Source: Tubulanus polymorphus
Lineage: Eukaryota > Animalia > Nemertea
Length of the DNA: 64,000 nt
Direction of reading: 5' to 3'
NCBI RefSeq assembly: GCF_964204645.1
Contig: NC_134034.1
Span: forward strand, 7,290,914 to 7,354,913
Part shown: piece by piece, positions 11,501 through 48,836 of the stretch
How the letters are laid out: every line of letters starts with the position of its first letter
Numbering within the stretch: the stretch's first letter is position 1
Made by a program: the position numbers and the translations under genes
Notes under the pieces: model-generated
What the model saw: the letters and a program-made list of their open reading frames with translations, nothing else
Told to the model about the DNA's origin: nothing
Databases searched by the model: none

Positions 11501-11619
11501 TCAAGGAATCGAAACTGACTTATCAAAAGCAGCGAGGAATGAAAAAGGATGACGTTGGTCGAAGAAATGGAAGAGGATTCTAAAATATTAACCAATTTAG
11601 TAAAAAATACGTATAATAA

Positions 11620-12285
11620 ATGGAACCAGAACAACCACAAACTATCAATATTACAAATAACACTGGTGGTGTTATAAATATATATTACAAGAAGTGTTCT
11701 AAATGTGAATTAGATAAATCATTAACAGAATTTAGTAAGCGTAAGATTAGCAAAGATGGTTTTCAATATTGCTGTAAAACTTGTACTAAACTATATACCA
11801 AACAATACCGAGAAGATAATAGAGAAGCTTATAATGATTATATGACAGAATATATGAGAGAAAGATATCAAACAGATCTTAATTTTAGATTGAAACAATG
11901 CTTAAGATCTAGATTAACACAATTATTCAACAAAGAAACGCATTCAGAAACACTATCTAATCTATTGGGTTGTTCAGATGAATTTCTCAAATCATGGATT
12001 ATATTTCTATTCGATGATAAAATGAATATAGATAATTATGGGGATTATTACCATATTGATCACGTGTTACCAATATCTAAATTTAACATGAATGATGAAT
12101 ACAATAAAAAACTTATTTGGGGTTGGAAGAATTTAAGACCTTTAGAAAAGAAAGAAAATCAAATCAAATCTAATAAACTAGATTTACAGTTATATTTAGA
12201 TCAACTGGATAAAGCAAAGACATTTGTTGAATTATGGAATTCAACACATAATGAACAATACGTTGAGTCTTTAATGAGTGGTTAA
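11620..12285 (+). CDS. HNH-type endonuclease with N-terminal CxxC zinc motifs
   Basis: KKCSKC...DG.QYCCKTC; HIDHVLP...NLRPL...EN..KSNK beta-beta-alpha-metal motif. Confidence 0.82.
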   Translation: MEPEQPQTINITNNTGGVINIYYKKCSKCELDKSLTEFSKRKISKDGFQYCCKTCTKLYTKQYREDNREAYNDYMTEYMRERYQTDLNFRLKQCLRSRLTQLFNKETHSETLSNLLGCSDEFLKSWIIFLFDDKMNIDNYGDYYHIDHVLPISKFNMNDEYNKKLIWGWKNLRPLEKKENQIKSNKLDLQLYLDQLDKAKTFVELWNSTHNEQYVESLMSG

Positions 12286-12533
12286 AGAATAATAGATTTT
12301 TAAATAAAAAATATTAAAAAAACAATAACTTCAACTAGCTAGTGAATTCTATTATATTTTTAATATTTTCTTTTCAAAAAAGAATACTTTATATCACAAA
12401 TAAAAAATACAAAAAAAACAATAACTAATACTAAAATTCTTTACCCTTAACTAAGCTAGTATTAATCTAAAGAGATACTGGTATCATTTGAAGAATACTT
12501 ATAATATTTTTTTGCTTTTTTTCTCTAATATAA

Positions 12534-13127
12534 ATGTCAAAGAAATCTAAAAAGAATAGTATTGATATTGAAAAGACATTAGATGATTTGGGTATAAGTG
12601 ATAATAAAGATACAGTTGTTTCTAATTCTATTCAAGTTAATAACAATATAGATTATGAATACTATTTGTATTGTAAGCATCATCTAGAACTATTGATTGC
12701 CGGTGGAAAAACTAAGGAGTTTTTAACTAAGACTATTATTTTTCAAGAATTAGATGCTATGAAACCAGATAAAGTAATAAAATATTTTAAGATTTATGAA
12801 GAGGCAAGATAAGCCCGAATAAATGATTCTATTTCAGATGGCATTGTCAAATGTTATTCTAAGTTATGTAACCAGTTAATACCAATTGATGATGAAAATA
12901 AATTATATAGTGATTTAAAAAATGACTCCTTAGTTATGACTGAATTACAAAAATGGGTTGGTTATGCTTCATTTCAATTAGGATCGGTTATGACATTAAT
13001 TTCTACTGGTGTCATAACATTTTCGAATATCAAGCCTATGGAATATAAATCAGGTAAGAACGAAACAGATGTACTACAACCAAGCGGCGAAACAGAAAAT
13101 GAATCAGAACAAAAATTAACTAAATAA
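12534..13127 (+). pseudogene. Conserved Polinton hypothetical protein (one internal stop)
   Basis: ORFs 12534-12812 and 12936-13127 together match intact 45592-46182. Confidence 0.75.
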
Positions 13128-13496
13128 ATGAGTGATGGCGTTAAGAAAAAGGTTAGATCCGAGAAACAAATTAAATGGGCAAGAGAATTAGGTAAAAGAT
13201 CTTCAGAATTAAAAAAAGCTAAGAAAAAGAAATTAACTGATATAAATGAATCACAGACTTTATCTGATATTGATTCAAATAATAATCCATCTGATTCTTC
13301 TAATAGTGGACGAAATAATTACTTATATATTACAATTGGATTAGTAACAGTTATTATATTATCCGGTGTAATATATAAATCAAAATTCAAATCTGATGAT
13401 AAAGATGATTCCAATGACAATAAACCTATCATACCAGAAAATAAGTCAAATCATAAAGTCATTGAAACTAAATCTGAATTATTATTAATGGATTAA
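13128..13496 (+). CDS. Small basic protein with single TM helix
   Basis: RSEKQIKWARELG motif shared with 45291-45644; hydrophobic segment YITIGLVTVIILSGVI. Confidence 0.7.
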   Translation: MSDGVKKKVRSEKQIKWARELGKRSSELKKAKKKKLTDINESQTLSDIDSNNNPSDSSNSGRNNYLYITIGLVTVIILSGVIYKSKFKSDDKDDSNDNKPIIPENKSNHKVIETKSELLLMD

Positions 13497-13502
13497 AATA
13501 AG

Positions 13503-14608
13503 ATGAAAAAAGAACAATATTTAAGAGAGTTATATTATAACCCAGAAAGTGAAGTATCATATTCTAACGTTACAGAATTATGGGGTAAAATTAAATCTGA
13601 TAAGGAAAATGGCAATGGTGCCGTATGGCACCCACATGGTGATATAAAATATAGTGAATTAAAATCATGGTTACAAAATCAACCAACATATCAAATCCAC
13701 AAGAAAATGGATAAAAATTATTTAACAAGAAAAGTTATGGTTTCATATATTGATCAACAATGGCAAGCAGATTTAATAGACATGAAGAACTTAGAGGAAT
13801 ACAACAAAGGATATTTCTGGATACTGAATGTTATAGACATATTCAGTAGATACGCATGGTCAATTCCAATCAAAAATAAAACTGGAATAGAAGTAACAAA
13901 TGCTTTTAAATCTATATTTAAAGAAGCTATTCCAGATAAGATACAATTTGATGAAGGTAAGGAATTTTATAACAAACATTTCAAAAAAATATTATCTGAT
14001 AACGATGTAGATTATTTTTCAACACATTCAGATAAAAAAGCATCTATTATAGAAAGATTTAATAAAACATTGAAAACTAGAATGTGGAAATATTTTACTG
14101 CTAATGAAACATATAAATATATCGATGAGTCTATAAATATATCAGATGATTTAGTGAAAGGTTATAATAATTCTAAACATTCAAGTATTGGTATGAAACC
14201 TATACAAGCTAGAAAAGAAGATAATTCGGAAATAGTTTGGAATAATTTATATGGCGCATTTGTCACACATGATTTCGGTGAACCTAGATTCAAAATTGGA
14301 CAACACGTAAGAATATCTAAATATAGAAAAACATTTTATAAAGGTTATACTCCAAATTTTACAGAAGAAATATTCAAGATTAAAAAGATAATATTAACTA
14401 AACCATTTGTTTATAAATTAGAAGATCTAAAAGACGAAGAAATATTAGGTTATTTTTATGAACAAAAATTATCACTTGTACCAAATCCAGAGGAAATAGA
14501 ATACAAAATAGAAAACTCTTAAAGGAAAAAAGTATTCTTTGGTGAAATATAAAGGATACGATGATAAATTTAATGAATGGATTTTATCTTGTAAAATTAA
14601 ACGAATAA
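13503..14608 (+). CDS. Polinton retroviral-type integrase, C-terminal chromodomain frameshifted
   Basis: WQADLID, IDIFSRYAW, IQFDEGKEF, ERFNKTLK; chromo remnant LVKYKGYDDKFNEWI after 14522. Confidence 0.95.
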
Positions 14609-15220
14609 ATGGAAAAAGATTTATTTATATTTGAACCGCATAATATGTTAGTTACTGGAGTAACCAATTGTGGTAAAACACATTTCATATTAGATTTGTT
14701 AGAAACTATTTATAAGAATCATTTTGATAATATAATATTATTCTGTCCTACTTATGAAATGAATAAAACATATAATAGAGATATAGTTAAGATGAAAAAG
14801 TTTATTATATTAGATCCTAAAACAGTAAAAGAAAATTTAGATAATTGTATAAAAATAGCAATTGATACTTATAAAGGATCAAATACATTATTCATTATAG
14901 ATGATTGCGCAAATTTACATGATTCAAAAGTTAAAGAAAGTGAGTTATGTTATCTAGCTTTCTCTGGGAGACATTTTGGGATAACAACATGGGTTTTAAA
15001 TCAAAAATATAATTCAATTGTTAAAGACTTTAGGGAGAATATAAGATTTCTAGTTTTATTTTATAACAAAGATAGAAAATCTATGCAACAATCATTGGAA
15101 GAAAATCAAATTATACCTACTGAGTTACATGATGAATATATGAATAAATTAAAGAATAATAAAGGTTCAAAATTATTACTGAGATTACAATTTCCCTATG
15201 AATATAAATTTATAAAATAA
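14609..15220 (+). CDS. A32/FtsK-like DNA packaging ATPase
   Basis: Walker A GVTNCGKT, Walker B FIIDD, GRHFGI arginine-finger motif, conserved Q. Confidence 0.93.
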   Translation: MEKDLFIFEPHNMLVTGVTNCGKTHFILDLLETIYKNHFDNIILFCPTYEMNKTYNRDIVKMKKFIILDPKTVKENLDNCIKIAIDTYKGSNTLFIIDDCANLHDSKVKESELCYLAFSGRHFGITTWVLNQKYNSIVKDFRENIRFLVLFYNKDRKSMQQSLEENQIIPTELHDEYMNKLKNNKGSKLLLRLQFPYEYKFIK

Positions 15221-15239
15221 CTATTTATATATCTATGTA

Positions 15240-15326
15240 TTAGATACCCTATTAGATACCCTAATACCTGATACCCTATTAGATACCCTAATACCTGATA
15301 CCCTAATACCTGATACCCTATTAGAT
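15240..15326. repeat. GATACCCTA minisatellite between convergent genes
   Basis: Six GATACCCTA units with TTA or ATACCT spacers. Confidence 0.85.
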
Positions 15327-15419
15327 AAAAAAATAGAAACTAAAAACTTAAATAGAAACTTAAATACTTAAAACCCCCTTTTTTATTTACTATTATTTTA
15401 TACAATTTTCAACCTTTAT

Positions 15420-16291
15420 TATTATTTGATTGTTAGATAATTAATTTCTGAATCACTTTCACTATCAGACCCTAACAATTTATTCAAATACTCTACCGTA
15501 TCTTCATGAATAATTGGTTTATTGATATACTTATTAGGCATCTCAACTATATCTTTATTTTCTGATTTAAGTTTCATAGAATCTTTATTATCAATGCGCT
15601 TTCCTGTATTTTCATTATTATATTTATTAGTGTTTGCTCCTTATATTTCATTTACAGTGTTTGATCCTAATATTTCATTAGCATCAGTTAAATCTAATTC
15701 ATCTTTATTAGGTGTTGCTAATAAAAAATCTTCATATAATTCTTTACCATTTACTTTTTTATTTGAAACAAATTTTGTAACATATCTAAATGGGTGTTCT
15801 TTAAATTCTCTTAAACCAACACGTTCTATAACATTAGTAATATGTGAATTTGTATTCATATGTTTATTTCAATTTGATGGAGCGTTTGAAAATTCACCTT
15901 TACAATAATCACAATAATTTCTATTTTTACTAACATTTAATATTATTGCATTATTATATGTAGAAGGTATTACATTATTAGATGTAGTAGGTATTACATT
16001 ATAAGATGTAGTAGGTATTACATTATTAGATGTAGAAGGTATTACATTATTAGATGTATTAGGTATTACATTATTAGATGTAGTAGGTATTACATTATTA
16101 TCAATTACATTACTTAAATTATCAACAACTTCACTTTTATTATTATCGATTTCTATTAGTTTAGTTTTATAAATTTTGAAAATAGGATCAAATATCAAAG
16201 CTATATTACAAGGTATTACATAATATAAACGATCATTATTTTCATGTGTATCGATGTATGGAATATGTTTATATACTTTACCTCCTTCCAT
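15420..16291 (-). pseudogene. Zn-finger protein with NNVIP(T/S)TS repeats (broken by stops)
   Basis: 24-bp tandem repeats ~15950-16110; YCDYC...H.....H finger spanning a stop; downstream end approximate. Confidence 0.6.
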
Positions 16292-16323
16292 TTAATATAA
16301 GATTTTTTATTAAAGTTTAAATT

Positions 16324-17572
16324 TTAATACATAACACTATCTAATTGTGAATTTACAATATTTAATTGCGCGTCAGATATAATATAAATGTGCATTTTGA
16401 AATTTAGACTTCCTTTTTTCTTTGTCATGAATAATTGTATTCCATCTTTAGTGTTTTGTAATTTTTTTCCAGAACCATGTAATGAATTATCCTCTGTTGT
16501 TCTAAAATCTAACCATAATGCATATTTATTACCGGTATAATAATCAATTTGATTAATGTTACAATTTTCAGATGATTTCACTTTTTCATTCATAAAATGT
16601 TTTCTAATTTCTGGCCATTGATCAATCATTCTCATTCCTTGACAAAATATTTTGTTTGCTATTCCTTCGATAGTTATTTCTACTTTTGTTATTTCAGGAT
16701 TATAATACTTATCAACTTGTATTGCACCATTAGAATATGTTGCAATGGTAAAAAATATTAATATACCTTTAATAGATCTTCTTGGGAAGTTAATATTCTC
16801 ATTAATTATTTCATCATTTGCATTAATAGTTACAGTTTTAAATTTATCAATATAATCATATAATAATAAAAATCCTTGATTGTATTTAGTTTGAATTATA
16901 CTTGCAATATTTTCATCAGTTACTGTATCATATTCTAAACATATATTCGATAATTTATAACTCATATCTTTAACAACGCTAGATAATACAATTTCATTTA
17001 CAGGAGCAAATGTTATTTCGAATATAACGTCTTCTTGAATTGCGTATTTATATAAAGGTGCATTATTATTTATCAATTCAAAGTCTCATGGAATTTTATA
17101 TTTGCTTCCATAAATCTTTTTTATCAAATTATCTGCGGTACGAGTTACTATTGCGTCATTAGCTCCTGATCTTAATTTATTTTGGTTTTCTGATTGGATG
17201 CCTTGAAATATCATATTATTTCTATTTTCTTTAGTTAACCATAAATCTTTATAATGCATAAATAGATTATAATCATCTAATGAGAAAACTGTTTCTGGAC
17301 CAATCTTTATAGTTAACTTTTTTAATCAAATATCTTCCAACATTATCAACAACATAATTAATATCATGACCTGTTAATTTTATATCAGCTGATAAATAAA
17401 TACTATTTGGAACATAAAAAGTATTTTGTGTTAATCTAGGAATTCTAACATATAAAGTTTCATCGGGATTAATATTAGAAGGGTTATGAGTAATTATATG
17501 ATGTGATCTTTCTGCTTTAATAGCATTAGATATTCTATGATTCTTCGAAGGATTGATATAACTCCCACTCAT
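16324..17572 (-). pseudogene. Major capsid protein (putative double jelly-roll), frameshift and stop
   Basis: ~415 codons, beta-rich; HNPSNINP..LYVRIPRL, LWLDFRT..D..LHGSG, YIISDAQLNI motifs recognised from invertebrate Polinton-like MCPs; further copies at 48250-48800 and 52631-53480. Confidence 0.75.
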
Positions 17573-17592
17573 TTATTTAACAAAAGAATTAA

Positions 17593-19283
17593 TTATTTAT
17601 TTTTGATCATGTTTACTAACCCAAAAATAATTGCACTTACAACTGTAATTAAAAATAAAATAATATGTTCAGCAGCAAAGTTAAGAATATTCCCTGCAGA
17701 TTTTAAAACAAACCCAACAATCGATGCAATAACTCCAGGTAAAGCTGCAGCAGATTTTTTAGATAGTTCCCATAAATATTTTGCTAATTTTTTTAAACCA
17801 TCCTTAACTTTATCTTGTGTAGAATTATTATCTGGGGGTTTATCTGGTTTTTTTGGAGTAGGAGTAGATTTTAATGAATTTGATATTGCTAAACCAATTG
17901 TTGTAAATAACATAGTTACAGCTGTTAGAATTGAAAGAATTGTTATTCCTTCTAACTTAAATAATAATCTTATTCTATCTTTCAATGATAGTTTAGAATC
18001 TGATTTTATTATTAAATCTGTAAAATAACTTTTAATTTTTTGATATGATTAAGATCATATGATTTCAATAATATGTCTCTTTCTTCTTTTTGTAAATTTA
18101 TGTTATATTTTAAATCATCTATTTCTTTTTCTAAAGCTAACTTTCTGCTTTCATAATCAGGTTCATCTCTATTTAATTCTAATTGTTCTAATTTTTCATT
18201 TGCAATAGCTAATTCTTTTTCTAACATGGTTATTTAAGAAAATCTCATATTAATATTAGCATTTACATCGGCTGATTCTTGTATACCTTTAATTTCTCTA
18301 CGTGTTTGTTCAGGAAATGCTTCTAATTCTTCATCAGTTAATTTAAGTAATCCTTTTTCTAGTAAAGATTGTATTCGATTTATTCCAGTTTCAGTACCGG
18401 GCGTATCTAAAACACTAATCATATCTTCTTCAAATGAATTCATTGTATCCAGTAAGTTATCTAAACGTTTTCCTAATTGTAATTGACTTGAATCATTATC
18501 AATTGGTTGAGTGTCTCTTCTCGATGTTTCTGGTGTTGAAGATCTTAATCTATCTGATCGATCTCCATATTCTTCCATTTCTGGATCAACATCAGTAGGA
18601 TTTAAATTTGGATTTTTAAATGGTAAATATTTGTTAATATCAATTTTAGGAATTGGTTTTTCTTTATTTATTCTATCGATTGCATTCCATATAATTCTGA
18701 GAAATTCTCTACCACCTTTTGAACCTTCAATTGTAGATCTATATCGCATTCCAGGTTCAAAAATATTTTCTTGACCCATTCTAGATAATTGAATTGATAC
18801 ATTTTTGTTATTGAATTCAACATTATAATACCATGCATCATTTTTAAATTCTAAATTATTCATGAAAAATGGGTCATCTTTTAAAATTTGTTCTACAACA
18901 CCTTCTGAACCAATTTCATCTATTTCATCTTTTGGTAATAATACGTTAACAATTGTATATATTACTCTATTTTTCATTAATTTTAATTGATATTTCATAA
19001 GAGGATCAGTTGTATTTACTAATCTTTCCATTAAATCCTTTCTAGATGTTGCGGTTCTAATAACTAACCTTTCGGTAGCTGTCATATATTCTTTAAATTC
19101 TTTACGCGTTTCATAATCATAATCATCACCATCATCATCATAATCGGGTATATTTAAATTATTATTATATCCTGGCTCATAACCATCATTAAAACTTGTT
19201 TCACTAAAATCAGGTTGTTGTTCATCACTTATACCGGGTTCATCTAAAGGATCCAATGGAATATCTTCTCCACCTTCTGCCAT
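17593..19283 (-). pseudogene. Acidic/coiled-coil protein with C-terminal membrane helices (split into 3 ORFs)
   Basis: ORFs 18234-19283, 18012-18227, 17593-17985 contiguous; hydrophobic/amphipathic C-terminus. Confidence 0.65.
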
Positions 19284-19338
19284 TTACATAATAAAAAAAT
19301 TAAAATTTAAAATATAATATTCCTATAATATAGTATTT

Positions 19339-20658
19339 TCATGATTTATTATCATCATTTAGTTTAATTATTTCATGTTGAATAATATCAGTTTTTATAT
19401 CTTCTGATGTATCGTAATCTTTTATTTTAGAATCATTATTTAATTTAATATAATTTGTTTTAGTTTCAGTTGATTGAATGTGTTTTTTATTTTTTTCACC
19501 TTCCATTAATTTTGGAGCAGTAATAATCTTTTTATTTATATCATTTAATCCAAATGAATTATTTATTTTTGCAGTCTTGATTAAATTATTATAACCAATT
19601 ATATTTCCCATCTTTAGTACTAAATCATTAGAAATAATTAATAGATTAGGACCAATACAATAATTTAATCTAATATGTGATTTATCTAAATAATTTTGAT
19701 ATCTTACAATGTTTTCTGGAATCGATCTATTTTTATCATTATGAATTGAATCTTCAAATAATACTTTGAATTGTTTCTGCGTATCAAATGATGTATTCAA
19801 ATTTCCAATTATTGGGGATCTTGTTTCAACTTGCGCACCTAAAATACATATCAAATAAGTTCTAATAGATTGATTTATTCTTTGTATACCTGATTTTGTA
19901 AAACCTTCATTATTTTCTAAAATGAAATAAACCCAACCGTTATTGTTTTCTTGTTTTAAATTATCATAAAATTTCGGTAATTTATTGAAATTTAATGTTT
20001 CTAAATCCTTAGTTTCTATTTTACCATAACCTAATTTATTATTATAGATATTATAAAAACTATTAGATGGTATGGGAAGTGCACAATATTCTGCAATCTT
20101 TTTAGGGCAAGGAAGTGATCTTATTGTTCCAATTTTTGTTCTAAAATCAGAATTATTTATATCTATATTAAATTCATTACAAATTTTATAAAACTTTGAT
20201 AAATTAATATTATTATCTAATTCTTTAAAATACCTAGATCCTGGTAAAGCGCACTCTTATTCATTTAATATTATTCTGATTTGAAAGTATGTATGAAATC
20301 TAAATAAACTTTGAATTAATTTATATTTAGAATTATTCAAATGATCATTCCAACTAATTCCACAACCTGTTGTTGCACAATAAACAGCAAAATTTGATTG
20401 GTTCTGCCAATACTTCATATTAGATTTTAATAACCATTGTTTTTCATCTTTCAATTTTTTAAAATCAATTAAATATACATGAAATATATTTTCCATCTTT
20501 GCATTAAAATTATTAGTTTCAGTGACATAAATTTCTAAATTAGTTAATGAATCTAAAACTTCATTTCTATTTGTAATATCTTTATTAAAATCTATTGCTG
20601 GAATATTATATTTAATTGATTTATTATATTGGAAAGCTTTTGGAAAACTATCTACCAT
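19339..20658 (-). pseudogene. Conserved Polinton-like hypothetical protein
   Basis: WQNQ.NFAVYCATTGCGIS..HL...FRFH.Y motif; ORFs 20257-20658 and 19339-19854 flank a disrupted middle. Confidence 0.65.
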
Positions 20659-20674
20659 TTATATAATAAAAAAA

Positions 20675-21116
20675 TTAATAATTTATCAATTCTTTTAATA
20701 ATTTATCTTGTTCTTCAACTGTTATATGGCCATTTAAACTTATTATATAATCTAGTGTATTCTTTAATTTATTAATTTCTTTTATATTAGTTTTAATTTT
20801 TTCTTTATTACTTTTTATATTTAATTTTTAACTTATACCAGTTAAAACACTTAACTAACGAACTTAATCCTAATACGCCAATTGATATAGCTAAAGGTGT
20901 TAATGGACTGAATATTGCTAGAAATGTTATTACAGAACTAATTGTAACCGAACCGCTTATAATAAGATAATATATAATTTTACTTTTTAAATATTTTTTC
21001 TTTTTAACTTTTAAGTCACTTTCAAATTCTAATATTTGTTTTTCTAAATATGTTTTTAATTTAGTTTTATTTATATCATGAGGAATAATATCAATATTAT
21101 CAACTTTATCTTCCAT
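20675..21116 (-). pseudogene. Two-TM small protein (frameshifted)
   Basis: Hydrophobic hairpin; homolog at 48837-49263. Confidence 0.65.
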
Positions 21117-21132
21117 TTATTTAGAAAAAAAA

Positions 21133-21558
21133 TTACTGATTAGTAAATTTATATGCTACAAATATAACAATAACAGTTCCGCCTAAAATCCATATTATTT
21201 CATATTTCTGTTGTTCTTTACTTGGGGTATAATAATCTGATAATTTAGGTTTGTATAGATGTAATTTTTCTTTATTTGTTACCGCGTTATATAAACTCAT
21301 TGCATCATCAACTGATTGAAAATCTCTATGCGAAATCTTCTGATCATATAATTCCTTGTTAATATAATCCATATAGTTTTGTCTTTTTTCTCTATATTCT
21401 TCTGCTGCTTTATTGTATTTCTCTAATGCTAAGTTATGTCTTCTTTGTTCTCCTAATGAACTATTTTTATAAATATGCTTAAATAAATAACCACCACCAG
21501 TAAATGCTAAAGCGTTTACAATTGCCGATCCTATAATAGTTATAATTGCAGAAGCCAT
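21133..21558 (-). CDS. Conserved small membrane/virion protein
   Basis: Hydrophobic N and C termini, central RRHNLALEKY helix; near-identical to 49282-49704. Confidence 0.8.
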   Translation of the reverse strand: MASAIITIIGSAIVNALAFTGGGYLFKHIYKNSSLGEQRRHNLALEKYNKAAEEYREKRQNYMDYINKELYDQKISHRDFQSVDDAMSLYNAVTNKEKLHLYKPKLSDYYTPSKEQQKYEIIWILGGTVIVIFVAYKFTNQ

Positions 21559-21582
21559 TTATTTAGCAAAAAAATTATGCAT

Positions 21583-21804
21583 TTATATGGGAGGAATATA
21601 TTTTTGTTTTTCCAAATAATCAATAGTTAAATTAGATAAAGTAACTGCTAATGTTAACTTTAAAATATCATTTATATCAAATCTATCAACATTAACACTT
21701 CCCATTTTGAATACTTTTTTTAATACCATTGAATAACCAACAGTTCCAACTGATAGTAATGCTCCATTATATAATCCAGTTATTATCCACTTATTATCAC
21801 TCAT
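21583..21804 (-). CDS. Small hydrophobic protein
   Basis: 73 aa, TAAATG start, homolog at ~49730-49948. Confidence 0.7.
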   Translation of the reverse strand: MSDNKWIITGLYNGALLSVGTVGYSMVLKKVFKMGSVNVDRFDINDILKLTLAVTLSNLTIDYLEKQKYIPPI

Positions 21805-22161
21805 TTATTTATCAAAAAAATTACTATCATCAAAATATTTAGTTATCTTATTTATGATTAATTCAACATTTATTTCATTACTAGTTTCATTTGTATATAT
21901 TTCAATTATTATTTTTTTAATATCATCGATGATAAAATCTTCATCTAAATTATAAAATCTTAAAGATTCTCTAATTAAATTAGTAATCTTTTCTACATTT
22001 AAAGTTTCTTTATCTATTGTTGTTTCATACTCAAATGTTGTTTCATTAGAAAATGTAATATTTTTGATATGTGTAATTACATAATTAATGTTAAATTTCA
22101 TTTCTTTCTCACGTTTAAAATCAAATCCAAAACATATACTCGGTCCAATAGTTATATTCAT
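21805..22161 (-). CDS. Hypothetical protein
   Basis: Conserved with 49953-50306; TAAATG start. Confidence 0.72.
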   Translation of the reverse strand: MNITIGPSICFGFDFKREKEMKFNINYVITHIKNITFSNETTFEYETTIDKETLNVEKITNLIRESLRFYNLDEDFIIDDIKKIIIEIYTNETSNEINVELIINKITKYFDDSNFFDK

Positions 22162-22177
22162 TTATATAATGAAAAAA

Positions 22178-22945
22178 TTACTCTTTACATCTTATAACTA
22201 ATTCATAAATTACAGGAAAGTTATTCAAATCAATTAAATAACCATTATGATTTCTTATTTCTAATTTAAAATTATTAAATTGAAGAATGCAAGGTTTAAA
22301 ATCACATTCTCTTAAATTATAATTTATTTGAGTTCCAAATTGTTTAACATTTTTCAGCGGTAAAATATTTAATATACTAGAATTACAAATTGTATCTTTA
22401 GTTGCTTCAAATGTTTTTGTTGGGTCATTTAAATTGCAATAAATATAAAAATGCGTAAAAGGTATTATATTTGTATAAGTTTCGATACTTGAATAATGTC
22501 TATCCGGAAGAATTCCAAACAGTTTAGCTAAAGGTTTTCTTACTAGAAATCTATGTTGTTCATTAGTTAACTTTATTCTTATTTTATTCGAACTATCATT
22601 TTTGATGAATTTAATTTCAAATCGAGCAGCTGAGCCCATTTTTAAACGAGCTCTTTTATTAATTTCTTGCGCTAATGTTTCTAAATTGTATAATCCTGGT
22701 TTTAGATAAAGATGAAACCATTTATTCAAATTTCTAACATAAATTTTAAAAGCTAAATGATCAAGACTTTTATTCGATATATTATGAAAAGAATTACATA
22801 AAGAATTACATAAACTTATATTTACTAATGTTAAATCTACACAATTCTTAAATTCTCTATCTAATTGTACTAGTAAATTATGAGATTTATAATTTGTAAG
22901 CCTTCTTGAATCAACAAATATTCTGTATTCTTTTAATTCCGCCAT
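22178..22945 (-). CDS. Putative minor capsid (penton) protein
   Basis: IFVDSR, NSFHNIS, PGLYN, YIYCNL, LEIRN..G..IDLNN motif pattern typical of single jelly-roll pentons of Polintons/virophages. Confidence 0.7.
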   Translation of the reverse strand: MAELKEYRIFVDSRRLTNYKSHNLLVQLDREFKNCVDLTLVNISLCNSLCNSFHNISNKSLDHLAFKIYVRNLNKWFHLYLKPGLYNLETLAQEINKRARLKMGSAARFEIKFIKNDSSNKIRIKLTNEQHRFLVRKPLAKLFGILPDRHYSSIETYTNIIPFTHFYIYCNLNDPTKTFEATKDTICNSSILNILPLKNVKQFGTQINYNLRECDFKPCILQFNNFKLEIRNHNGYLIDLNNFPVIYELVIRCKE

Positions 22946-22962
22946 TTATTTTACATATTTTC

Positions 22963-23316
22963 TTATTCGAAATCTATTTCATGGTGCCCTTTTTCATTCT
23001 TACCTTTGTATACGAAATAGAAATCTCCAGAACATAATTCTTCTAAATCTTCACTTGATAATCTATGAAATCTATCTGGTAAATATGTTCTAAATTTATA
23101 TGTATTTCCTTTTAATCCTTCATATTCTAAGTGTATAACTAATTTATCTCCATATTTGTTAGTAACTGTATCAATATTTGTAATTAGATATCTCTTATGG
23201 ATTGTTAATTCTGTTAACTTTTTGAATTTATAATCTACAGATTTTACATTTGTGATATCTTTTATTCTATCTAGAAATAATTTGTTGTTCTCACTGTGCG
23301 CTTGTTTACTCTCCAT
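22963..23316 (-). CDS. Small putative OB-fold/ssDNA-binding protein
   Basis: NKYGDKLV...YLPDRF motif directly downstream of PolB; homologs at 44411 and 56537; function inferred. Confidence 0.55.
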   Translation of the reverse strand: MESKQAHSENNKLFLDRIKDITNVKSVDYKFKKLTELTIHKRYLITNIDTVTNKYGDKLVIHLEYEGLKGNTYKFRTYLPDRFHRLSSEDLEELCSGDFYFVYKGKNEKGHHEIDFE

Positions 23317-24293
23317 TTATAATACATATTTTTATTAGAATTTGATTAACACGTTAGAATTCTTTTCATTATCTCGTTCTCTTTTGTTTCTTCTCTTTTA
23401 AATTTTAAGTATTCATCTAAATTACAACCATAAGCAACTGTATGAATTCCATCATCTAAAATATATCTTTTATCATCAAATGGGTTTTGAATTATCTTTT
23501 CAATTTCTTCAATAAACATTTCATGATCTTCAGATCTTAAACATTTCATCTTATGTTTTCTAACTTCTTCATTGAATATACAATTGATGTAATCTTTGAA
23601 ATGAATATTCTTTTCTACTACACTTTTGGTTATTCCTTTTAACTTTTTAGCTTCATGTTCTTTAGTTTTATATGAATACATTTTAGATCTAATACCTATG
23701 AACTCTATCATTTCTTCACCACCTAATTCATCCTTAAACTTCCCTGGAAGTTTTTTATTATCATTGCTAAACAATTCATGATTTTTAGGATAATTACTAA
23801 AATCAAAATGATGTTTTAATGCTTTTAAATCATCAGTTATGTTATCAGTTTTTATCTTTAATATGTAAGAATCTATATCAAAATATAATATTTCTATATG
23901 TTTTTCTCCAAAAAGTGGTTGTAATATATTATAATAGAATTCATACATTAGTAATTTTGATAATTCTAAAACTGAAGCGCCAACATAGATTGGTTTATTA
24001 AATTTCATTGATGTTCTTCTCATTTTAACTGCAGCTAAATTTTCATCAAATATTCTGTTACCAATGAACTTTAGGATATGTTTGTAAATGTCTAATTCTT
24101 TTACCATTACTAACTAACTCAATATCATTTCTATTTCTAATATTTTCACAAGTCTTACCATAGAATGCATTATTCATTAACTTGAAGAAATCTTTCTCAA
24201 AATCAGTTTTAGCTTCAGTTCTCTGTTTGGTGTTAAAATCTATATATTTTTCTAACCACTTAGATTGACTAAATGAAATATATCTATGTACTT

Positions 24294-26531
24294 TTTAGGC
24301 CAGCCGTAGGCTGAGCCTATTACTATACAAATGGAGCGAATTTAAATGACATGGTTTCCACACAAAAGGCTCTTTTGCTTGCCAAGTGAGGGCATATTCG
24401 AACAAATCACGTATTTAAGCGTAATCCATTCTCGGAATCGTAGCGAGCAGAATTTTGAAATAGGGTCTCATAAAAATGTTTTCTGCATTTTTCACGAAAG
24501 TTAAATCGGGAAAATTTCAATTTTTATCAGCCAATCAGGAAGTTGTGTCTTCCCTGTGATTGGTTTATCTGAAAATATCAGCAGCTGTTCACGTGAATTA
24601 TCGCGATTTCATTACTGGCGCTTTTGCGCATGACGTCATGTATCAACACGCGACAATACTTCCGCGTTCGCTACGTGTTCGCTGATTGGCCCATTTACTG
24701 GGAAATTCCACAGAAGCCTAATGTGGTTTGTTACAAGCGCTGTGATTGGCCCGACCCGATTCTGGCATGGCTTTAGCTTAGTGGGTTCGAATCCCTTGAC
24801 GGGTGAAGATGATGGATCCTATCAATATCTATTGAAACAAATAAGTTTCCCGGTTGGGCAGCCGCGGATATCTACCGGAAGTGTTCCGGTTCGATATTTC
24901 GAGGTTTCTTTGAATTTTGGAGTGATATTGAAATCCGGTAAATACCAGCGGTAGATTGTGAAAACCCATTGCATGATATTTGTATTACTTAATCAACGAA
25001 AAGCGTCGGGGCCGCGCCAGGAGTTTTCGTGATTCAAGTAGCGCAATAGCCTACTTCTTCGTGTTCGTCCACCTCAATTTTTACTCCGCCGATCTCTGAC
25101 ACGGCTCTGTCCCCGTCGGCGCTGTGATTGCACTTTCGTACCACCAAAATTTTTTATTTCTATATCAGGGAGGTCTGGAGAATAAAAAAGTCAAAATTTG
25201 GATATCACATAGGCCTGATTTCATCGAATAAGTCGACCATGGTCGTTACGTTTCCGTACTTATTACCACCTAAAACCGTCTGAACAATTTTGTCACAACC
25301 AACATTTCGTTTACAGAAATCAGGTGTTCACGTGAATCCGCGATATCGTCTACTGTTTTACTTCCGGGTTTTATTTTAAGGTTTAAAATTGTATTTCAAG
25401 ATCGATTTCTATGAAATCTTTAGTTGATTTGGTGTTTGGGAGGAATTTTTATTTGCTCTACAGAAAATTCATCCTTGACAATTGCGCAAGGTTCGCGAAA
25501 AAAAGGTTTTACCAAATCGGGTGTATGACCTTGATATGCTAATTAGCCATGTGCCCGAATTGCAAATTCAATCAAATTTTATTCTGCCAAAAAATGTTAA
25601 ATACAATTCGCTTTCCGAGAGTTAATGGTATGGTGATGGAACAAAGTTGTTTTGAGATGGGTCTTGAAGCTATTGAGGTCGAGAGATAACCATCTAGATA
25701 GTTCGTGTTAGTTCCAAAGTTTTGAAGACGCTTCAAGGTAATGTCTTGATATTTGTTTTATACGTGTATCTACCCTAGACACATCTTCAGGCCAAAAACT
25801 GGCCCTGTCAGATTCAAGATGGCCGACTGGCAGCCATTGTTGTTCGCCAAAATCAGCACTTTTTACACATTTTTGAAGTTTTCGAGGGAAATTTTGAAGA
25901 CACTTTTATCAATAACCTTGATCATTCGTATATATTTGTAGCCCCCAAGGGCCCATCGGCATGAGAAAAATTGAGTCGATCGGACTCAAGATGGCCGTAC
26001 TGTGACCTTTTTTGTTCCCAAAAATGTCAATTTTGGCCTGAATTCTGAGTACTGTAGCTTTCTAATGGTGCGCCATGTTTCATTGCAATTTGTAATGGGT
26101 ATTCTTTGGAAAGGGATCTTTTATATCCGAGAGGGTATTTTTGACCAGGCAATTATGACGCACTTGGCAGCCATCTTGGGGTCATCAGTACTCATTCGTA
26201 GGTGGAAAAAAAGTTTTTCCACATCATAATTGATACTTAAGCATATTTTGCTACTATAATCAATTGGAAAGTTGTAGCTCATGACATGTTCTATGATCGA
26301 GGTGAGTTTCAAGCTCATTGGTTTTTTTATGGCCACCAGGGGGCGTTGAACAATACAATAACTTAGTATTTCTATATTACATTCGTTCCTGCTGTCTGTG
26401 TTAACACACGATTTTACTATGTAAATGATATTGAGCAGGGAGTGTATATTGATAAATATAACCCACAGATTACATCATTTATAAAAAGCAAATCTGACAG
26501 GCTGGCCATTGTGCCCCTTGGGGCTCTTGTT
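24294..26531 (+). mobile_element. Helentron-associated non-autonomous element (HINE/DINE-like)
   Basis: Inserted in a T-run within PolB (GMILK|KVHRY); subterminal IR GGCCAGCC/GGCTGGCC; 3' hairpin GCCCC-tt-GGGGC followed by TCTTGTT. Confidence 0.78.
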
Positions 26532-29500
26532 TTAGGATCATTCCTTGTTTTAGATAAAACTTTAACATTCTATAGTGTACAACATAATTATATTTATCTT
26601 GTTGAGTTACCATTAACTTTTCTGTACGAATATGATTTTCGGGTTTAATTCTTTTTTGATACTTTGATAATTCTTCATGAGTTACATTTTTATGTTCGGG
26701 ACAGTAAGCTAGATTTCTGGATTTAAATTTAATATGTTCAGGATATTCTAAATCTACAACAAAGAAGTAACCAGTATCTGAATCATCTGCAATATCTAGG
26801 ATTCTTTTCTTCCAATCAAATTTATCATTATTTTCATTCTGTAAAACTTCAGTTAATTCAAATACTCCATAAGGTTGTGATTCCATCATTGCCCAACCAT
26901 ACAAATTATTTGCATCTATATATAATAATTTATATCCAGGGTTATCATTTACATTGAAATATCTATCACCTAATACACCTGAAACTCCTCCTCTTATAGA
27001 TTTTTCAAATAAAAATAATTGATCTATATTTGTTAACAAATCCATTTTTATATCTGTAAATTTTAATCCACAATCCCATGTTAAACCTGGTGATGAATAA
27101 CAATGACATGGATCAATATTGAAATATTTTAGGTTTACATCTCTAAACCTTTCAAATATATCGGTTAATAATAATACATCTGATTTTAGATATAAATCTA
27201 CTAATTGCCCATGATTTTCTATTTTGAAATGATTCCAAATATTCAATGTTCTATTATATACTTCATCTTTAACATATTCATTTTTTAATTCATCATAGAA
27301 TTGTTCTTTCAATAATTCAGTTATATTGAAATCATTATGTGATTTATAAAATGAATATGGAATTGCGCCTTTATATCTCATTAATTGAAAATCATCATTA
27401 TTTGGGTAGTGTTGCTTTAATATTTTCAATTCATCATCAACTAATGATTTTGATAAGTTATCTAATGAACTATTTAAAAATCTATATGAATCTATAAATC
27501 TTAGGCATCCAAATTGGAAAGATATATAATTCGCAGATGTTTTAGCTAACATTCTAAATTTATAAGTTGGTATTTTATCTTTTGATCTATTTGAATTTAA
27601 TCTTTCTATTTCATTATTAATTCTTCTATTTTATGGCATAACTGTTTGATAAATAAATGTGCATCATATCCTGATAGATTATGAAATATAACTGGTACAA
27701 AATTAATTTTCTTAGCTTGTAAGTTACAATTCTCATGTGCAGCGCCTCTCAACTTTCCGTTCAAATGATCATGGTCTCTTACTTTTTTATCTTTAAAATT
27801 AAATATCTTTTCACAATAATAACATTTATCTGCAAACGCAAATTCTTCTTTATCTTTTTCTGTCATTATAATTTCTATATTTGTATTCAATAATTTACTA
27901 AATCTTATTTCATATTCAATTAATAAGTCACAAAAATGATTAATAACATTTTCATTTCTGTAATGATAATATTCACTTTCAATTAGTTCTGGATTATCAG
28001 ATTTAATATATAACCCGAAAGCTGCAGCTGATTGATGAATCTTTTTAATAGTATTTGTTTTTGGTGGTTCATCTGAATAATCATTTTCATTAGAATTTAA
28101 TTTCTTTCTTTTATAATATATTTCTTTTCTATCTTGATCAGTTAATTCTTTATTTAATGATTCAAAATCTGAATAATCATTTTCATTAGAATTTAATTTC
28201 TTTCTTTTATAATATATTTCTTTTCTATCTTGATCAGTTAATTCTTTATTTAATGAATCATAATCTTTTGATAGATATAAAGGTTCTAATGTATAATGTT
28301 TTATATTGTTACCTTTTGTATTTGGTAATTTGATTAAATCAAATACATTTATCTTTATATTATTATCTCTTTCTATTTTTGGGATGTTTTTAATTCTAAC
28401 AGGATACTTATCTATCTTATAATTATTTTCAAATGGTTTATAATGAGTTAATCTAAAACTATGTGTAATATCTTCTGTTGGATGTAAGCAACTTATAATT
28501 GTCCACAGAAAACATTTATCATCTTCATTTTGTACATTAATAACAGCATTAGTTGTAAATGGTAGTTTAATATAACTCGATGCTTCAATATCTGGTTCTT
28601 TATAATATGATACATTATTTTCATCTATTGGTTTTGATTTAGTTAACTTATTATATTTTGTGTTATAAACATGTAAAGTCATAAATATTATTTCATCAAA
28701 TATTAAACCAGATCCTTCAAAATATTTCTCTTCTATTTTAGTTTTTACTTCATTATAACATTTATCTAATTTATCATCTATATGTTGTTTAGATATAATA
28801 TGTTGTGAATGAGAATTTATATTATATATTGGTTTATCTTCAGATTTTATAAACTTAACTTTAGAAGATATACTTATTTTAGGATATTCAACATCAGTTA
28901 TTATTTTTATAATATTTTTCATATTTTCTAAATGTTTTTTATTTTCTTCTAATGTTTTTCCTTTATGCAATTTAAACTCGATAGCTGCTGGACCAATATC
29001 ACTTTTAAATGCTTCGGTTATCTCTATATCTTTTTTATTATCTAATGAATTAATATAATTTCTTACATCTTCCATGTATGGCCTTTTATTGTTTAATTTA
29101 TTTTTTATGCTTTTAATTGTCTTCTGTTTCTTATCATTATCTTTATCAAAATAATCTTCACCTAAAATAACATTATTCATATTTCTAATATGACTTTTAG
29201 ATTTTAAATGTTCTTTATAATATCTTTTATCACTGAATGATTGATTACATGTATCACATTTGTATGTTTCTTTTTCATTCTTTAATTCATCTAATTTAGT
29301 TTCTAATATATCATCTTTATATTCTAGTTTCAATTTATTCTCTAAATGTGTTTTACTTTTATTGTGTCTTGCTTTTTGGGATTTATCTATATTGATATTA
29401 CCATGTTGGGCAGTAGTACTTATTTGTTTCCATTTTAATATCAAATTTTTTTTTAAATTGATTTTTAGAAGTTCAATGATATATAGGCTCAAATAGAATC

Positions 29501-29557
29501 ATGTTCTAGTATAAACAGCTATGCATTATTTCAATCACACTTTAATAATATTTTAAG

Positions 29558-29775
29558 AGTAATAGGGGTAATGGGCTTTCATATCAAAGGTTGAATGGTC
29601 GAGTTCATTAAAAACATATATTAAAAGTAATTCAAAACTATAATATATTTTCATAACCGTGTGTATTTCAGTTGAATATTATTATTATTTGAATATATTT
29701 GATTATATGAATTTGTGTATTGTAAATAAATCAATTGGTCGCGGAGCGGAGCGGTAGCGAAGTGGAGCGACCAAT
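29558..29775. repeat. Internal copy of terminal palindrome half (marks tandem duplication of right end)
   Basis: Reverse complement of ~9570-9796, sitting between two PolB N-terminal copies. Confidence 0.85.
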
Positions 29776-31463
29776 ATAACCCGAAAGCTGCAGCTGATTG
29801 ATGAATCTTTTTAATAGTATTTGTTTTTGGTGGTTCATCTGAATAATCATTTTCATTAGAATTTAATTTCTTTCTTTTATAATATATTTCTTTTCTATCT
29901 TGATCAGTTAATTCTTTATTTAATGATTCAAAATCTCCATATATAACAAATGGAACTTTATTTTTGTAATCATATTTTTTGAATTCTAATATTTTATCTT
30001 TTTCATTTGGTAAAACTAATTTACAATAATCATGATTTTCACATAAATGTTTATGATTAAATAATGTACTTTCATTACTGAATCTATGTAAACATTTTCT
30101 TCAAAGATATATTTTATGGTGATCATTTTCTGATTTAAAAAATAAATCTATTTGTTTAATCCACATATAATGATTTTCATAATATAGTATATCTATAACA
30201 TCGTTTGAATCATAATCTTTTGATAGATATAAAGGTTCTAATGTATAATGTTTTATATTGTTACCTTTTGTATTTGGTAATTTGATTAAATCAAATACAT
30301 TTATCTTTATATTATTATCTCTTTCTATTTTTGGGATGTTTTTAATTCTAACAGGATACTTATCTATCTTATAATTATTTTCAAATGGTTTATAATGAGT
30401 TAATCTAAAACTATGTGTAATATCTTCTGTTGGATGTAAGCAACTTATAATTGTCCACAGAAAACATTTATCATCTTCATTTTGTACATTTATAACAGCA
30501 TTAGTTGTAAATGGTAGTTTAATATAACTCGATGCTTCAATATCTGGTTCTTTATAATATGATACATTATTTTCATCTATTGGTTTTGATTTAGTTAACT
30601 TATTATATTTTGTGTTATAAACATGTAAAGTCATAAATATTATTTCATCAAATATTAAACCAGATCCTTCAAAATATTTCTCTTCTATTTTAGTTTTTAC
30701 TTCATTATAACATTTATCTAATTTATCATCTATATGTTGTTTAGATATAATATGTTGTGAATGAGAATTTATATTATATATTGGTTTATCTTCAGATTTT
30801 ATAAACTTAACTTTAGAAGATATACTTATTTTAGGATATTCAACATCAGTTATTATTTTTATAATATTTTTCATATTTTCTAAATGTTTTTTATTTTCTT
30901 CTAATGTTTTTCCTTTATGAAATTTAAACTCAATAGCTGCTGGGCCAATATCACTTTTAAATGCTTCGGTTATCTCTATATCTTTTTTATTATCTAATGA
31001 ATTAATATATTTTCTTACATCTTCCATGTATGGTCTTTTATTGTTTGATTTATTTTTTATGCTTTTAATTGTCTTCTGTTTCTTATCATTATCTTTATCA
31101 AAATAATCTTCACCTAAAATATCATTATTCTTATTTCTAATATGACTTTTAGATTTTAAATGTTCTTTATAATATCTTTTAAAACTGAATGATTGATTAC
31201 ATGTATCACATTTGTATGTTTCTTTTTCATTCTTTAATTCATCTAATTTAGTTTCTAATATATCATCTTTATATTCTAGTTTCAATTTATTCTCTAAATG
31301 TGTTTTCGTTTTATTGTGTCTTGCTTTTTGGGATTTATCTATATTGATATTACATGTTGGGCAGTAGTACTTATTTGCTTCCATTTTAATACTAAATTTT
31401 TTATTAAAATTGATTTTAGAAGTTATTCATTTATATTTTATTCATATATATGAATATTTTAAG

Positions 31464-43980: not shown

Positions 43981-44065
43981 AGTAATTGTAAAAGTGGGGT
44001 TTCAGATCAGAGGTCGAGAGGTCGAGACACCACTCATCACCACAAATAATTTTTTTCCCTTATAA

Positions 44066-44272
44066 ATGGAAGAGAATAAGACAGAACAAATTGATGTTAA
44101 TGAAAATCAATATCATTGTCCATATTGTAAAAAATACATCGATAAATCAAATAAACCTTACATGGAAAATGTTAGAAATTATATTGATTCACTAGAAATA
44201 AAAGATACAATTGAAATTTTAGAAATATTACGCAGTAAAATTGTGACACACATAAACAGTGAGTGCGCGTAA
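44066..44272 (+). CDS. Small ORF resembling PolB N-terminus (TIR-borne); inverted copy 57001-57207
   Basis: YHCPYCKKYIDKSNK / PYMENVRNYIDSL match family A PolB N-terminal segments. Confidence 0.55.
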   Translation: MEENKTEQIDVNENQYHCPYCKKYIDKSNKPYMENVRNYIDSLEIKDTIEILEILRSKIVTHINSECA

Positions 44273-44410
44273 CAACAGCTGCGCGTGTGTTAACTGTACC
44301 CGGATAAATAGATGCTGTGAGACTTGGGTGAGAACGGTTAATAGCGTGTTTGTTATATACAGGGGAAGTAATCCCCACTCATCACCACAAGTAATTTGTT
44401 TTCCTTATAA

Positions 44411-44737
44411 ATGGGAGATAGAAAAGCATTCTTAGCAACAATAAATAACAGAATAAAACCAGCAAAAAAACAATTTGAAATAAAAAAGTTAGTTGATGTT
44501 ACAAAAGAAATTGAACATAAAATATTGAAATTAGAAAAGATAAAAACTAAATATGGAGAGAAAGTATCAGCTAATTTAAGCTACTGTAATGTTAGTACAT
44601 CACGAGAATTTAAAGTGTTTTTACCCGATAAATGGGTTTCATTGAGTACAGAGGAATTGAAAGATTAAGTAGGATTTAAAATAATATATCATGGGAAAAA
44701 TGAAGATGGTCATCATGATTTAGAAATTGTTGATTAA
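44411..44737 (+). pseudogene. Putative ssDNA-binding protein homolog (premature stop)
   Basis: TKYGEKV...VFLPDKW; inverted copy ~56537-56862. Confidence 0.6.
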
Positions 44738-45290
44738 ATAAAAAATAAAAATAATGAATATCTAGAATCCAAAATGACCTTAGTCGTTTTAAAAACAACT
44801 ACAATCATACAGTCAAACATTTGTTATATGTTATTATAAGAGAGTGCTTCATTTGAATATTGATCAATCAAACAGGTGTTGCACAACGTTGTTGTTATAT
44901 TGGATAGCTAGCAGTTTTATAATAAGCACGCAGTACATACAACACACACAAGCCAGTTAGCCGGCATTGAACTACCACGTTTTCATTGGTTGCTGAAAGC
45001 GAGGTTTATTTAAATTAGCTATTACTATGTTAATTGATTAACAAATTCAAATTCAAATATTCATTTTAGCATACTCAGTGCTGTCATCTTTCAATTTAAG
45101 AAAAAACTAATAATAAGAAACGACTGTAATACAATATTCAAGTAAAAACAAAATAAATTAATAAAAATAATGAATATCTAGAATCCGAAATGACTTATCT
45201 GGACAATTTAATTGCTCCGCATAGATAGACAAAAGTAGTGAGATATTCAATTAATTAAAAAAATTATTTTTTTTGCTTTTTTCTAAAATA

Positions 45291-45644
45291 TTAATCCATT
45301 TTCTTTATTATCAATTTTGGAATTTCAGAAGTATTTTCATTTTTGATAGCAGTTGTTTCAGAATTATTAATATTATGAATTTTATTTGATTTCTTATACC
45401 AATTACACCCAATCAAAATGAATACAATTACAAATCCAACTGTAAAATATAGACATTTATCAAATATTCTATCATTAGAAGGATTAGAAATAACAATATT
45501 TTCACTATTTTTATTAACATTTTTATTACTTATTTTTTCTTTTACAGCTTTTTTATATTCTTGTGATTTAATTCCTAATTGCCGAGACCATTCAATTTGT
45601 TTCTGTGATCTCGGTTTTTTCTTCACTTCTTCCACCTCGCTCAT
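45291..45644 (-). CDS. Small basic TM protein
   Basis: Homolog of 13128-13496. Confidence 0.7.
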   Translation of the reverse strand: MSEVEEVKKKPRSQKQIEWSRQLGIKSQEYKKAVKEKISNKNVNKNSENIVISNPSNDRIFDKCLYFTVGFVIVFILIGCNWYKKSNKIHNINNSETTAIKNENTSEIPKLIIKKMD

Positions 45645-46182
45645 TTATTGTAGAAATATTTTTACTTTCAATATTTGAAAATTTTATAACCCCAGTTGAT
45701 AATAATGTCATAAATCCACCTAATTGAAATGATAAATATCCAATCCATTTATTTAATTCAGTCATAACTAAATAATCATTTTTTAAATCGGAATATAATC
45801 TATTTTCATCTTCAATTGGTAGTATATAATTACATAATTTACTATAACCTTTTACTACATTTTCTGATATCGCGTCATTAATTCTAGCTGTTCTCGCGGC
45901 TTCATAAATCTTAAATAATCTAATAATTTCATCTGATTTCATTGTATCTAATTCATTATAAGTTAAATTTTTACCGACAAAATTTTTACATTTTCCAGAT
46001 GCTATTAATATTTCTAATTGATGTTTACAGTAAAGATAATATTCATAATTATTATTTGTTGTAACATTATTTAAAACACCATCATCTGGAATTAATTTGT
46101 TTTCTGTTATTCCTAAATCATCTAAAGTTTTTTCAATTGGAACATCACCATTTTTAGATTTTATTTTCTTTTCACCTACCAT
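45592..46182 (-). CDS. Conserved hypothetical protein
   Basis: Homolog of 12534-13127 and 55442-56047. Confidence 0.75.
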   Translation of the reverse strand: MVGEKKIKSKNGDVPIEKTLDDLGITENKLIPDDGVLNNVTTNNNYEYYLYCKHQLEILIASGKCKNFVGKNLTYNELDTMKSDEIIRLFKIYEAARTARINDAISENVVKGYSKLCNYILPIEDENRLYSDLKNDYLVMTELNKWIGYLSFQLGGFMTLLSTGVIKFSNIESKNISTINERGGRSEEKTEITETN

Positions 46183-46209
46183 TTATATAACAAAAAAATT
46201 ATTTGTGAT

Positions 46210-46480: not shown

Positions 46481-46481
46481 T

Positions 46482-48218: not shown

Positions 48219-48249
48219 TTATATATCGTTAATTTTAACTTTATATTTC

Positions 48250-48800: not shown

Positions 48801-48836
48801 TGCAATTTTTCATCTGCCATTTATATAACTAAAAAA

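Follow-up and report, generated by a model that had tools for sequence, protein, structure and literature searches.

Helper-promoter sharing has been documented for virophages as well as for Polinton-like viruses (PLVs) (PMC8547959; bioRxiv 10.1101/2022.07.28.501842). Here, we describe a two-part start signal resembling a poxvirus late promoter in Maverick/Polinton-like elements of the nemertean Tubulanus polymorphus, which lie in a stretch of 64,000 nucleotides (nt) of contig NC_134034.1 (assembly GCF_964204645.1, positions 7,290,914 to 7,354,913 of the forward strand), hereafter called the window. In vaccinia virus, late promoters have TAAAT(G) across the start codon, together with a conserved T ten nt upstream and weaker T residues around it (PMC11980589). 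Like the vaccinia and mpox late promoters (PMC11980589; PMC5294985), the present signal combines TAAAT over the start codon, a following G, and a T tract whose centre lies some ten nt upstream. It differs from them in that it belongs to a small integrating element in which no RNA polymerase was found, and that it precedes nearly all genes, including the integrase gene and, in relatives, the gene for the protein-primed DNA polymerase B (pPolB).

Other described systems share further traits with these elements. Mavirus with its helper CroV, the EMALEs, whose types differ in promoter motif (PMC8547959), and Gezel-14T with PgV (bioRxiv 10.1101/2022.07.28.501842) are likewise small double-jelly-roll elements that carry the promoter motif of a helper giant virus. 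However, their hosts are protists, the helpers are of the mimivirus type (motifs TCTA and AAAATTGA) and are known, whereas here we infer the helper. PLVs have been found in the occlusion bodies of entomopoxviruses (PMC11296320), and these offer a likeness as animal Polinton-like viruses that are tied to poxviruses, but an adenoviral-type protease is present and an rve integrase absent there. The main text of that paper never mentions promoter, motif, TAAAT or transcription. Adintoviruses and animal Mavericks (PMC8502044) have pPolB, rve integrase, packaging ATPase, capsid and endogenous copies in common with the present elements. They differ by an adenain protease, for which no match was found in the scanned viral open reading frames (ORFs) of the window and of the related loci L003, L017, L018 and L035, loci that are incomplete and in which a divergent copy could escape. 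PMC8502044 mentions neither promoter nor helper.

TAAATG and an upstream T tract at the start codons

The window is made up of alternating blocks, AT-rich ones with a GC content of 21-27% and others of 35-47% GC with retroelement and DNA-transposon pieces. The AT-rich blocks code for an rve integrase, an A32 ATPase, pPolB pieces, an endonuclease VII/HNH-like protein and about ten unknown genes; they are broken, nested Maverick/Polinton-like elements. The original prediction held that TAAATG stands at almost every viral start codon in these blocks, and all 23 starts listed in it (14 in family A and 9 in family B) were confirmed. Those of family A lie on the forward strand at 11620, 12534, 13128 and 14609, and on the reverse strand at 16291, 17572, 19283, 20658, 21116, 21558, 21804, 22161, 22945 and 23316. 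Six more TAAATG starts came to light at 48820, 49262, 49949, 54643, 55442 and 57207. Exceptions are the integrase start at 13503 (TAAG-ATG), the start at 51081 (TAAATA-ATG) and pPolB, whose two starts at 9876 and 31384 read TAAAATG, just as had been stated. The features that are relevant to this analysis are the following.

11606..11622, forward: start signal (-14 to ATG) of the HNH/endonuclease VII-like gene, ATG at 11620
12520..12536, forward: T tract and TAAATG of the conserved unknown gene fam4; the closest upstream ORF ends about 250 nt away
13114..13130, forward: TAAATG, its TAA doubling as the stop of the upstream frame
13503..14522, forward: rve integrase; start without TAAATG here, copy at 48218 with TAAATG
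14595..14611, forward: TAAATG of the packaging ATPase
14609..15220, forward: A32-like packaging ATPase (PF04665, E 5e-12)
16289..16305, reverse: TAAATG and upstream A run, fam24
16324..17572, reverse: major capsid protein gene, split among several frames; intact relatives, modelled as a double jelly roll, are 78% identical to the longest of them
17570..17586, reverse: T tract and TAAATG, capsid gene
19281..19297, reverse: T tract and TAAATG, conserved 'MAEGG' gene
20656..20672, reverse: T tract and TAAATG, fam7
21114..21130, reverse: T tract and TAAATG, fam19
21556..21572, reverse: T tract and TAAATG, conserved 'MASA' gene
21802..21818, reverse: T tract and TAAATG within the end of the upstream ORF, the TAA being that ORF's stop
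22159..22175, reverse: T tract and TAAATG, fam41
22943..22959, reverse: TAAATG and upstream A run, putative minor capsid gene
23314..23330, reverse: TAAATG and upstream A run, fam28
23346..31384, reverse: pPolB in pieces, with interruptions and partial duplication; TAAAATG at the start codon at 31384
44052..57221, no single strand: family B, rearranged copies, TAAATG at 44066, 44411, 45644, 46182, 47090, 48218, 48820 and 49262
49704, 49949, 50306, 51150, 54643, 55442 and 57207: further TAAATG starts of family B
51150..52472, forward: broken zinc-finger gene, its last part a sub-cut-off Pox_VLTF3 match

When family A and pPolB are taken together, TAAATG is found at 14/16 starts, compared with 43/598 of the ATGs in region A (p 1e-14). 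Removal of the three starts that abut a stop codon leaves 11/13 (p 2e-11). The chance level of TAA before ATG was 43/598 in region A and 40/501 in region B. Among the ORFs of at least 100 amino acids (aa) in the viral regions, called from the first ATG, TAA precedes 20 of 35 and TAG or TGA none of the 35, a set that includes internal ATGs of broken frames as well as antisense frames; for ORFs of 0-14 codons, TAA, TAG and TGA precede the ATG in 57, 33 and 20 of 658 cases. Family B adds little independent weight to these counts where it shares genes with family A at 95-96% identity. The pPolB-type starts, two in number, duplicate a single sequence.

Relatives were retrieved with a capsid alignment (82 loci). 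The tree comprises 49 of these loci plus the window, all with a capsid frame no shorter than 240 aa. The counts were made over 41 tree-placed loci after dropping the five near-duplicates L002, L019, L028, L039 and L043, and also L036, L063 and L065; polymerase and HNH rows, and rows in which the Met lies more than 45 codons into the frame, were left out as well. Starts in the relatives were anchored through protein homology and not through the motif. At these anchored starts, TAAATG was present in 34/43 cases in clade A, which includes the window (support 100/97), in 42/43 in clade B (100/100) and in 5/6 in clade C (100/100), the background being 5.7-9.0%; the figures were 0/23 in a group characterised by TATA and 0/19 in a group with AAAATG (100/100). 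Locus L035, with 9/9 TAAATG starts, and L043, with 8/8, are the fullest of clade B. In more than two dozen related sequences from other samples, nearly all genes open with the two-part signal. The enrichment over other ATGs also holds when composition is controlled for: eight loci of the TAAATG clades with at least 35.5% GC have TAAATG at 26/28 starts against a background of 61/1132, and loci of 26-31% GC, such as L020, L026, L031, L047 and L048, have none. The view that an abutting upstream stop codon explains only few cases is likewise upheld, the TAA being the stop of the upstream frame in 2/36, 3/42, 1/5 and 3/22 starts of the sets compared. TAG or TGA directly precedes the ATG in a single one of 92 starts. 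The TAAATG start feature is real, strong and conserved.

The second part of the signal lies upstream. Counting from the A of the ATG (+1), we compared the TAAATG sites at the head of ORFs of at least 60 aa with all other TAAATG sites. TTT at positions -14 to -12 was seen at 15/26 start versus 5/69 non-start sites in the window, 29/56 versus 5/77 in clade A, 21/45 versus 4/52 in clade B and 2/5 versus 0/17 in clade C. For a T at -13, the corresponding values were 18/26 versus 26/69 (window), 42/56 versus 24/77 (A) and 33/45 versus 16/52 (B). The T-run that had been noticed upstream of TAAATG is thus borne out as a tract of fixed position, from -14 to -12. Since the conserved T of vaccinia lies ten nt upstream of TAAAT, it falls at -13 in the present numbering, and the tract agrees with it to within one base. 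Both parts of a poxvirus late promoter were found: TAAAT(G) overlaps the start codon, and upstream there is a conserved T among further T residues. In addition, G is enriched at +4 of the TAAATG starts.

The arrangement of the genes is also informative. Ten head-to-head pairs, 14-37 nt apart, have TAAATG on both strands, and at a spacing of 14-15 nt the initiator of the partner provides T residues at or beside the -14 to -12 box. The ATPase and fam7 genes form five head-to-head pairs that overlap by 22-28 nt, each gene having its own TAAATG (L035, L038, L041, L042 and L044). This geometry fits transcripts that start at the ATG, and it speaks against upstream poly(A) signals and stop-restart coupling.

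In eukaryotes, a purine is favoured at -3 of the start codon. T occupies this position in 81-98% of the starts in the TAAATG clades, and A in 74% and 95% of those in the other two groups. The capsid, ATPase and 'MASA' genes all have TAAATG in clades A and B, whereas none of them does in the TATA and AAAATG groups; the TAAATG state goes with the element and not with the gene. At least three changes of this state are required by the tree. A single origin was rejected by an approximately unbiased test (p 0.0065 against the grouping, which was named after the tree had been seen). The tree is unrooted and its deep nodes are weak, so that the changes may be gains or losses of TAAATG.

In the TATA group, TATA lies within 16 nt of the ATG at 18/23 starts versus 97/1099 ATGs, and in the AAAATG group this is so for 10/19 versus 157/1391. 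Loci with TATA 4-16 nt before the ATG and no TAAATG are L015, L017-L021, L047-L049 and L081. Late genes of African swine fever virus (ASFV) are initiated at TA(+1)TA with a median leader of 9 nt (PMC7163114). This initiator resembles the TATA 4-16 nt before the ATG in the TATA group, a sister group, and not the elements of the window; the offset of TATA is variable in the sister group, and the likeness is only a lead. The AAAATG of the other group may reflect no more than an AT-rich context for translation, or it may be the AAAAT motif of iridoviruses (PMC5294985).

A proposed borrowed late promoter and its rivals

In the preferred explanation, to which we assign a probability of roughly 0.6, the two-part signal would be a late promoter, a co-infecting virus of the poxvirus type would supply the RNA polymerase that reads it, and the elements would lead a virophage-like life. 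As in a virophage-like PLV, no RNA polymerase of their own was found: polymerase, TBP and TFIIB gave no match among the scanned ORFs and family profiles of these incomplete loci, the sole Rpb1 match (E 0.086, in an HNH-family ORF) being at noise level. Late promoters of poxviruses depend on the viral RNA polymerase, on late factors and on replication of the DNA. To judge from vaccinia, a poxvirus-type polymerase would start within the AAA, slip and add an untemplated poly(A) head, a slippage that has been described for vaccinia and for yeast virus-like elements (PMC6211774). The resulting mRNA would have no templated leader, and it is proposed that the T at -3 would for this reason never meet a ribosome. 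On the model of mavirus/CroV and Gezel-14T/PgV, the integrated copies would stay silent until a helper infects the cell. The genes of the element would then be expressed, pPolB would copy its DNA, and packaging would take place in the cytoplasmic factory of the helper.

Several observations weigh against this explanation. In the window and clade A the T peak lies at -12 (88-89%) and not at -13 (69-75%), in clade B it is spread over -14 to -12, and clade C alone, with five sites, is not significant at -13. On the coding strands, the observed/expected (O/E) ratio of AATAAA in a codon-shuffle test was 0.95 in the window, 0.96 in clade A, 1.04 in clade B, 1.05 in the AAAATG group and 0.71 in the TATA group. 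As depletion is missing in the TAAATG clades and the AAAATG group alike, the ratio does not tell nuclear from cytoplasmic transcription. TTTTTNT is depleted in clade A (O/E 0.29) and not in clade B (0.86). Altogether, the groups could not be told apart by codon-shuffle tests of AATAAA, splice-donor and poly(T) words. We were unable to assign a pox early promoter: a candidate early core upstream of pPolB was dismissed, as its pattern recurs at numerous unrelated sites and is close to a single pPolB-type start. Lastly, no helper virus was found, and IMG/VR gave no relatives when scanned with the ATPase, with the capsid alignment or with the zinc-finger gene.

The poxvirus-type reading had originally been extended to pPolB, for which an intermediate promoter was proposed. 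Its late-initiator part is supported, with a fixed T tract, three clades and the GC-richer loci behind it, whereas the part on PolB is not. The idea that PolB uses an intermediate TAAA rests on one duplicated sequence, and the first-ATG pPolB starts of L052, L070 and L043 are TAAATG. A pPolB-specific signal consisting of TAAA and an A-rich core with no upstream T was not found. A late/intermediate split by gene family was likewise discarded, as the upstream sub-classes do not sort in that way; A-run and T-run contexts both occur among capsid genes (4/15 and 10/15). A reading of TATAAATG as an RNA polymerase II TATA box was rejected by reasoning, since the transcript would then begin only downstream of the conserved ATG. 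Foldback units about 140-410 bp in length are present at 9390-9800, 31463-31639 and 40554-40692, just upstream of pPolB-type starts (by about 75-80 nt for those at 9876 and 31384). These units are possibly part of an element end.

Could the pattern arise without any dedicated polymerase? In region A, no triplet precedes ATG more often than TAA (43/598), and the elements have about 21-27% GC, so that AT-rich composition combined with first-ATG calling might in principle produce it. This reading is, however, refuted by the clade counts, the T-tract contrast and the GC-richer loci, and with the p-value of 1e-14 in the window and the lack of TAAATG in the AT-rich loci L020, L026, L031, L047 and L048 it retains next to no probability. 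It is also very improbable that TAAATG acts at the RNA level on transcripts made by the host, be it as a start-guarding stop, through stop-restart coupling or as a poly(A) signal that belongs to the upstream gene and overlaps the start. AATAAA or ATTAAA does overlap the start in 15/34 (A), 20/42 (B) and 5/5 (C) cases, and the enrichment of G at +4 resembles Kozak contexts. Yet neither hexamer is present in 19/34 (A) and 22/42 (B), and head-to-head genes keep TAAATG though they have no upstream gene on the same strand. Moreover, TAG and TGA are nearly unused, T at -3 makes for a poor Kozak context, and a fixed T tract is not predicted by such a signal.

The other alternatives keep a viral factor. 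A late factor of the element itself, similar to VLTF3, might steer the host's RNA polymerase II to TAAATG in the nucleus with no helper being involved. Such a mode has been proposed for mriyaviruses, which have VLTF2/3 and lack a polymerase, and VLTF-type factors are said to be undetected outside the Nucleocytoviricota (PMC11253617). Sub-cut-off matches to Pox_VLTF3 (PF04947), all to the same C-terminal part of the profile, may indeed mean that some elements have their own late factor, which would count against a borrowed polymerase. In the window they lie at 52146-52469 (E 1.2e-3) and 5907-6062 (E 0.012), the best reaching 19.7 bits with a cut-off of 25; in relatives they were seen in L017 (E 3.6e-5, 24 bits versus the cut-off of 25) and L018 (E 6.4e-4). 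The ORFs that end in these matches are 51150-52472 and 5475-6122 in the window, both on the forward strand, L017:5082-5576 and L018:6543-7049. Nevertheless, the intact homologues P0167-P0170 of the window's zinc-finger gene have no Pox_VLTF3 match, the alignment between the two candidate groups is poor (hhalign probability 4.6%), no VLTF3-like ORF was found in L035 and L043, and the best matches sit in the group without TAAATG. Protein searches with the zinc-finger region returned no further forms, and its single-sequence fold had a predicted local distance difference test score (pLDDT) of 45, too low for use. We regard an own late factor as unlikely. Less probable still is a helper from a non-poxvirus lineage of Nucleocytoviricota with a TAAAT-like late initiator by coincidence. 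TAAAT and AAAAT motifs have been reported close to the polymerase genes of iridoviruses and ranaviruses (PMC5294985), yeast virus-like elements have TAAAN initiators (PMC6211774), and relatives of poxviruses are still undersampled according to the egovirus preprint. Against this, TAAAT overlapping the ATG with an upstream T at a fixed distance is the published description of the vaccinia/mpox late promoter, and TAAATG starts are listed for salmon gill poxvirus too.

Element content and structure of the region

The assignment to Mavericks/Polintons is supported by several hallmark proteins. PF03175 marks pPolB in a piece of the window (E 1e-9) and in the relative L035 (E 1e-49), PF00665 scores above the cut-off for the integrases at 13503 and 48218, and the packaging ATPase matches PF04665 (E 5e-12). 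The capsid frame at 16327-17085 has 226 relatives in a protein search, which gave no longer forms. For P0001, the closest relative (78% identical to the longest frame of the window), the model predicted from an alignment of 51 sequences (pLDDT 87) is a double-jelly-roll major capsid protein, and Foldseek matched it to the capsids of PBCV-1, SGIV and mavirus (E 4e-16 to 7e-11). Profiles of the capsid, fam7, MAEGG, fam4 and the minor capsid had no convincing sequence match in the PDB, and the minor capsid candidate at 22178-22945 had neither a Pfam nor a PDB sequence match. The P0008 cluster, whose capsid is 58% identical to that of the window, comes from short contigs in assemblies labelled Bartonella and is likely host contamination. 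Some relatives have accessory genes for a Bcl-2-family protein and deoxynucleoside kinases (L018:2448-2858, L003:10343-10981 and L010:2898-3377).

Families A and B share several stretches that are 95-96% identical where genes are common to both. Family B, at 44030-57243, is a large rearranged inverted duplication with arms that are 95-99% complementary. Many variant contigs from three runs span the whole window (all 30 bins), which is consistent with a multi-copy family, although their depth is not copy number. A fourth set of contigs, possibly RNA, contributed a single short piece. Intact element ends, with terminal inverted repeats and a target-site duplication, could not be established among the broken, nested and rearranged copies of the window. 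A tandem array of units of about 114 nt lies at 10916-11477, just upstream of the HNH-like gene.

Implications for animal Mavericks

Helper-promoter sharing as such is known; what the present elements add is an integrating Maverick lineage that carries a late promoter of the vaccinia type, with switches of the initiator at the level of lineages. Among the literature matches listed, judged by titles and abstract openings, there was no report of poxvirus promoters in Mavericks. A near-invariant vaccinia-type late promoter makes it testable by which route animal Mavericks are transcribed, and whether they depend on a helper virus or are autonomous. The finding would extend promoter sharing of the virophage style from protists to animals and poxviruses, and the start signal offers a prediction of the helper class for each Maverick lineage that requires nothing but sequence.

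We tentatively consider a wider view, somewhat less probable than its opposite, that a whole capsid lineage of animal Mavericks consists of integrated virophages of poxvirus- and asfarvirus-type viruses. The start signals would then be the address of the helper, switched several times between TAAATG and TATA. If this were true, there would be undiscovered poxvirus-like viruses in these hosts, and the endogenous copies would wake only upon infection, as mavirus does in protists.

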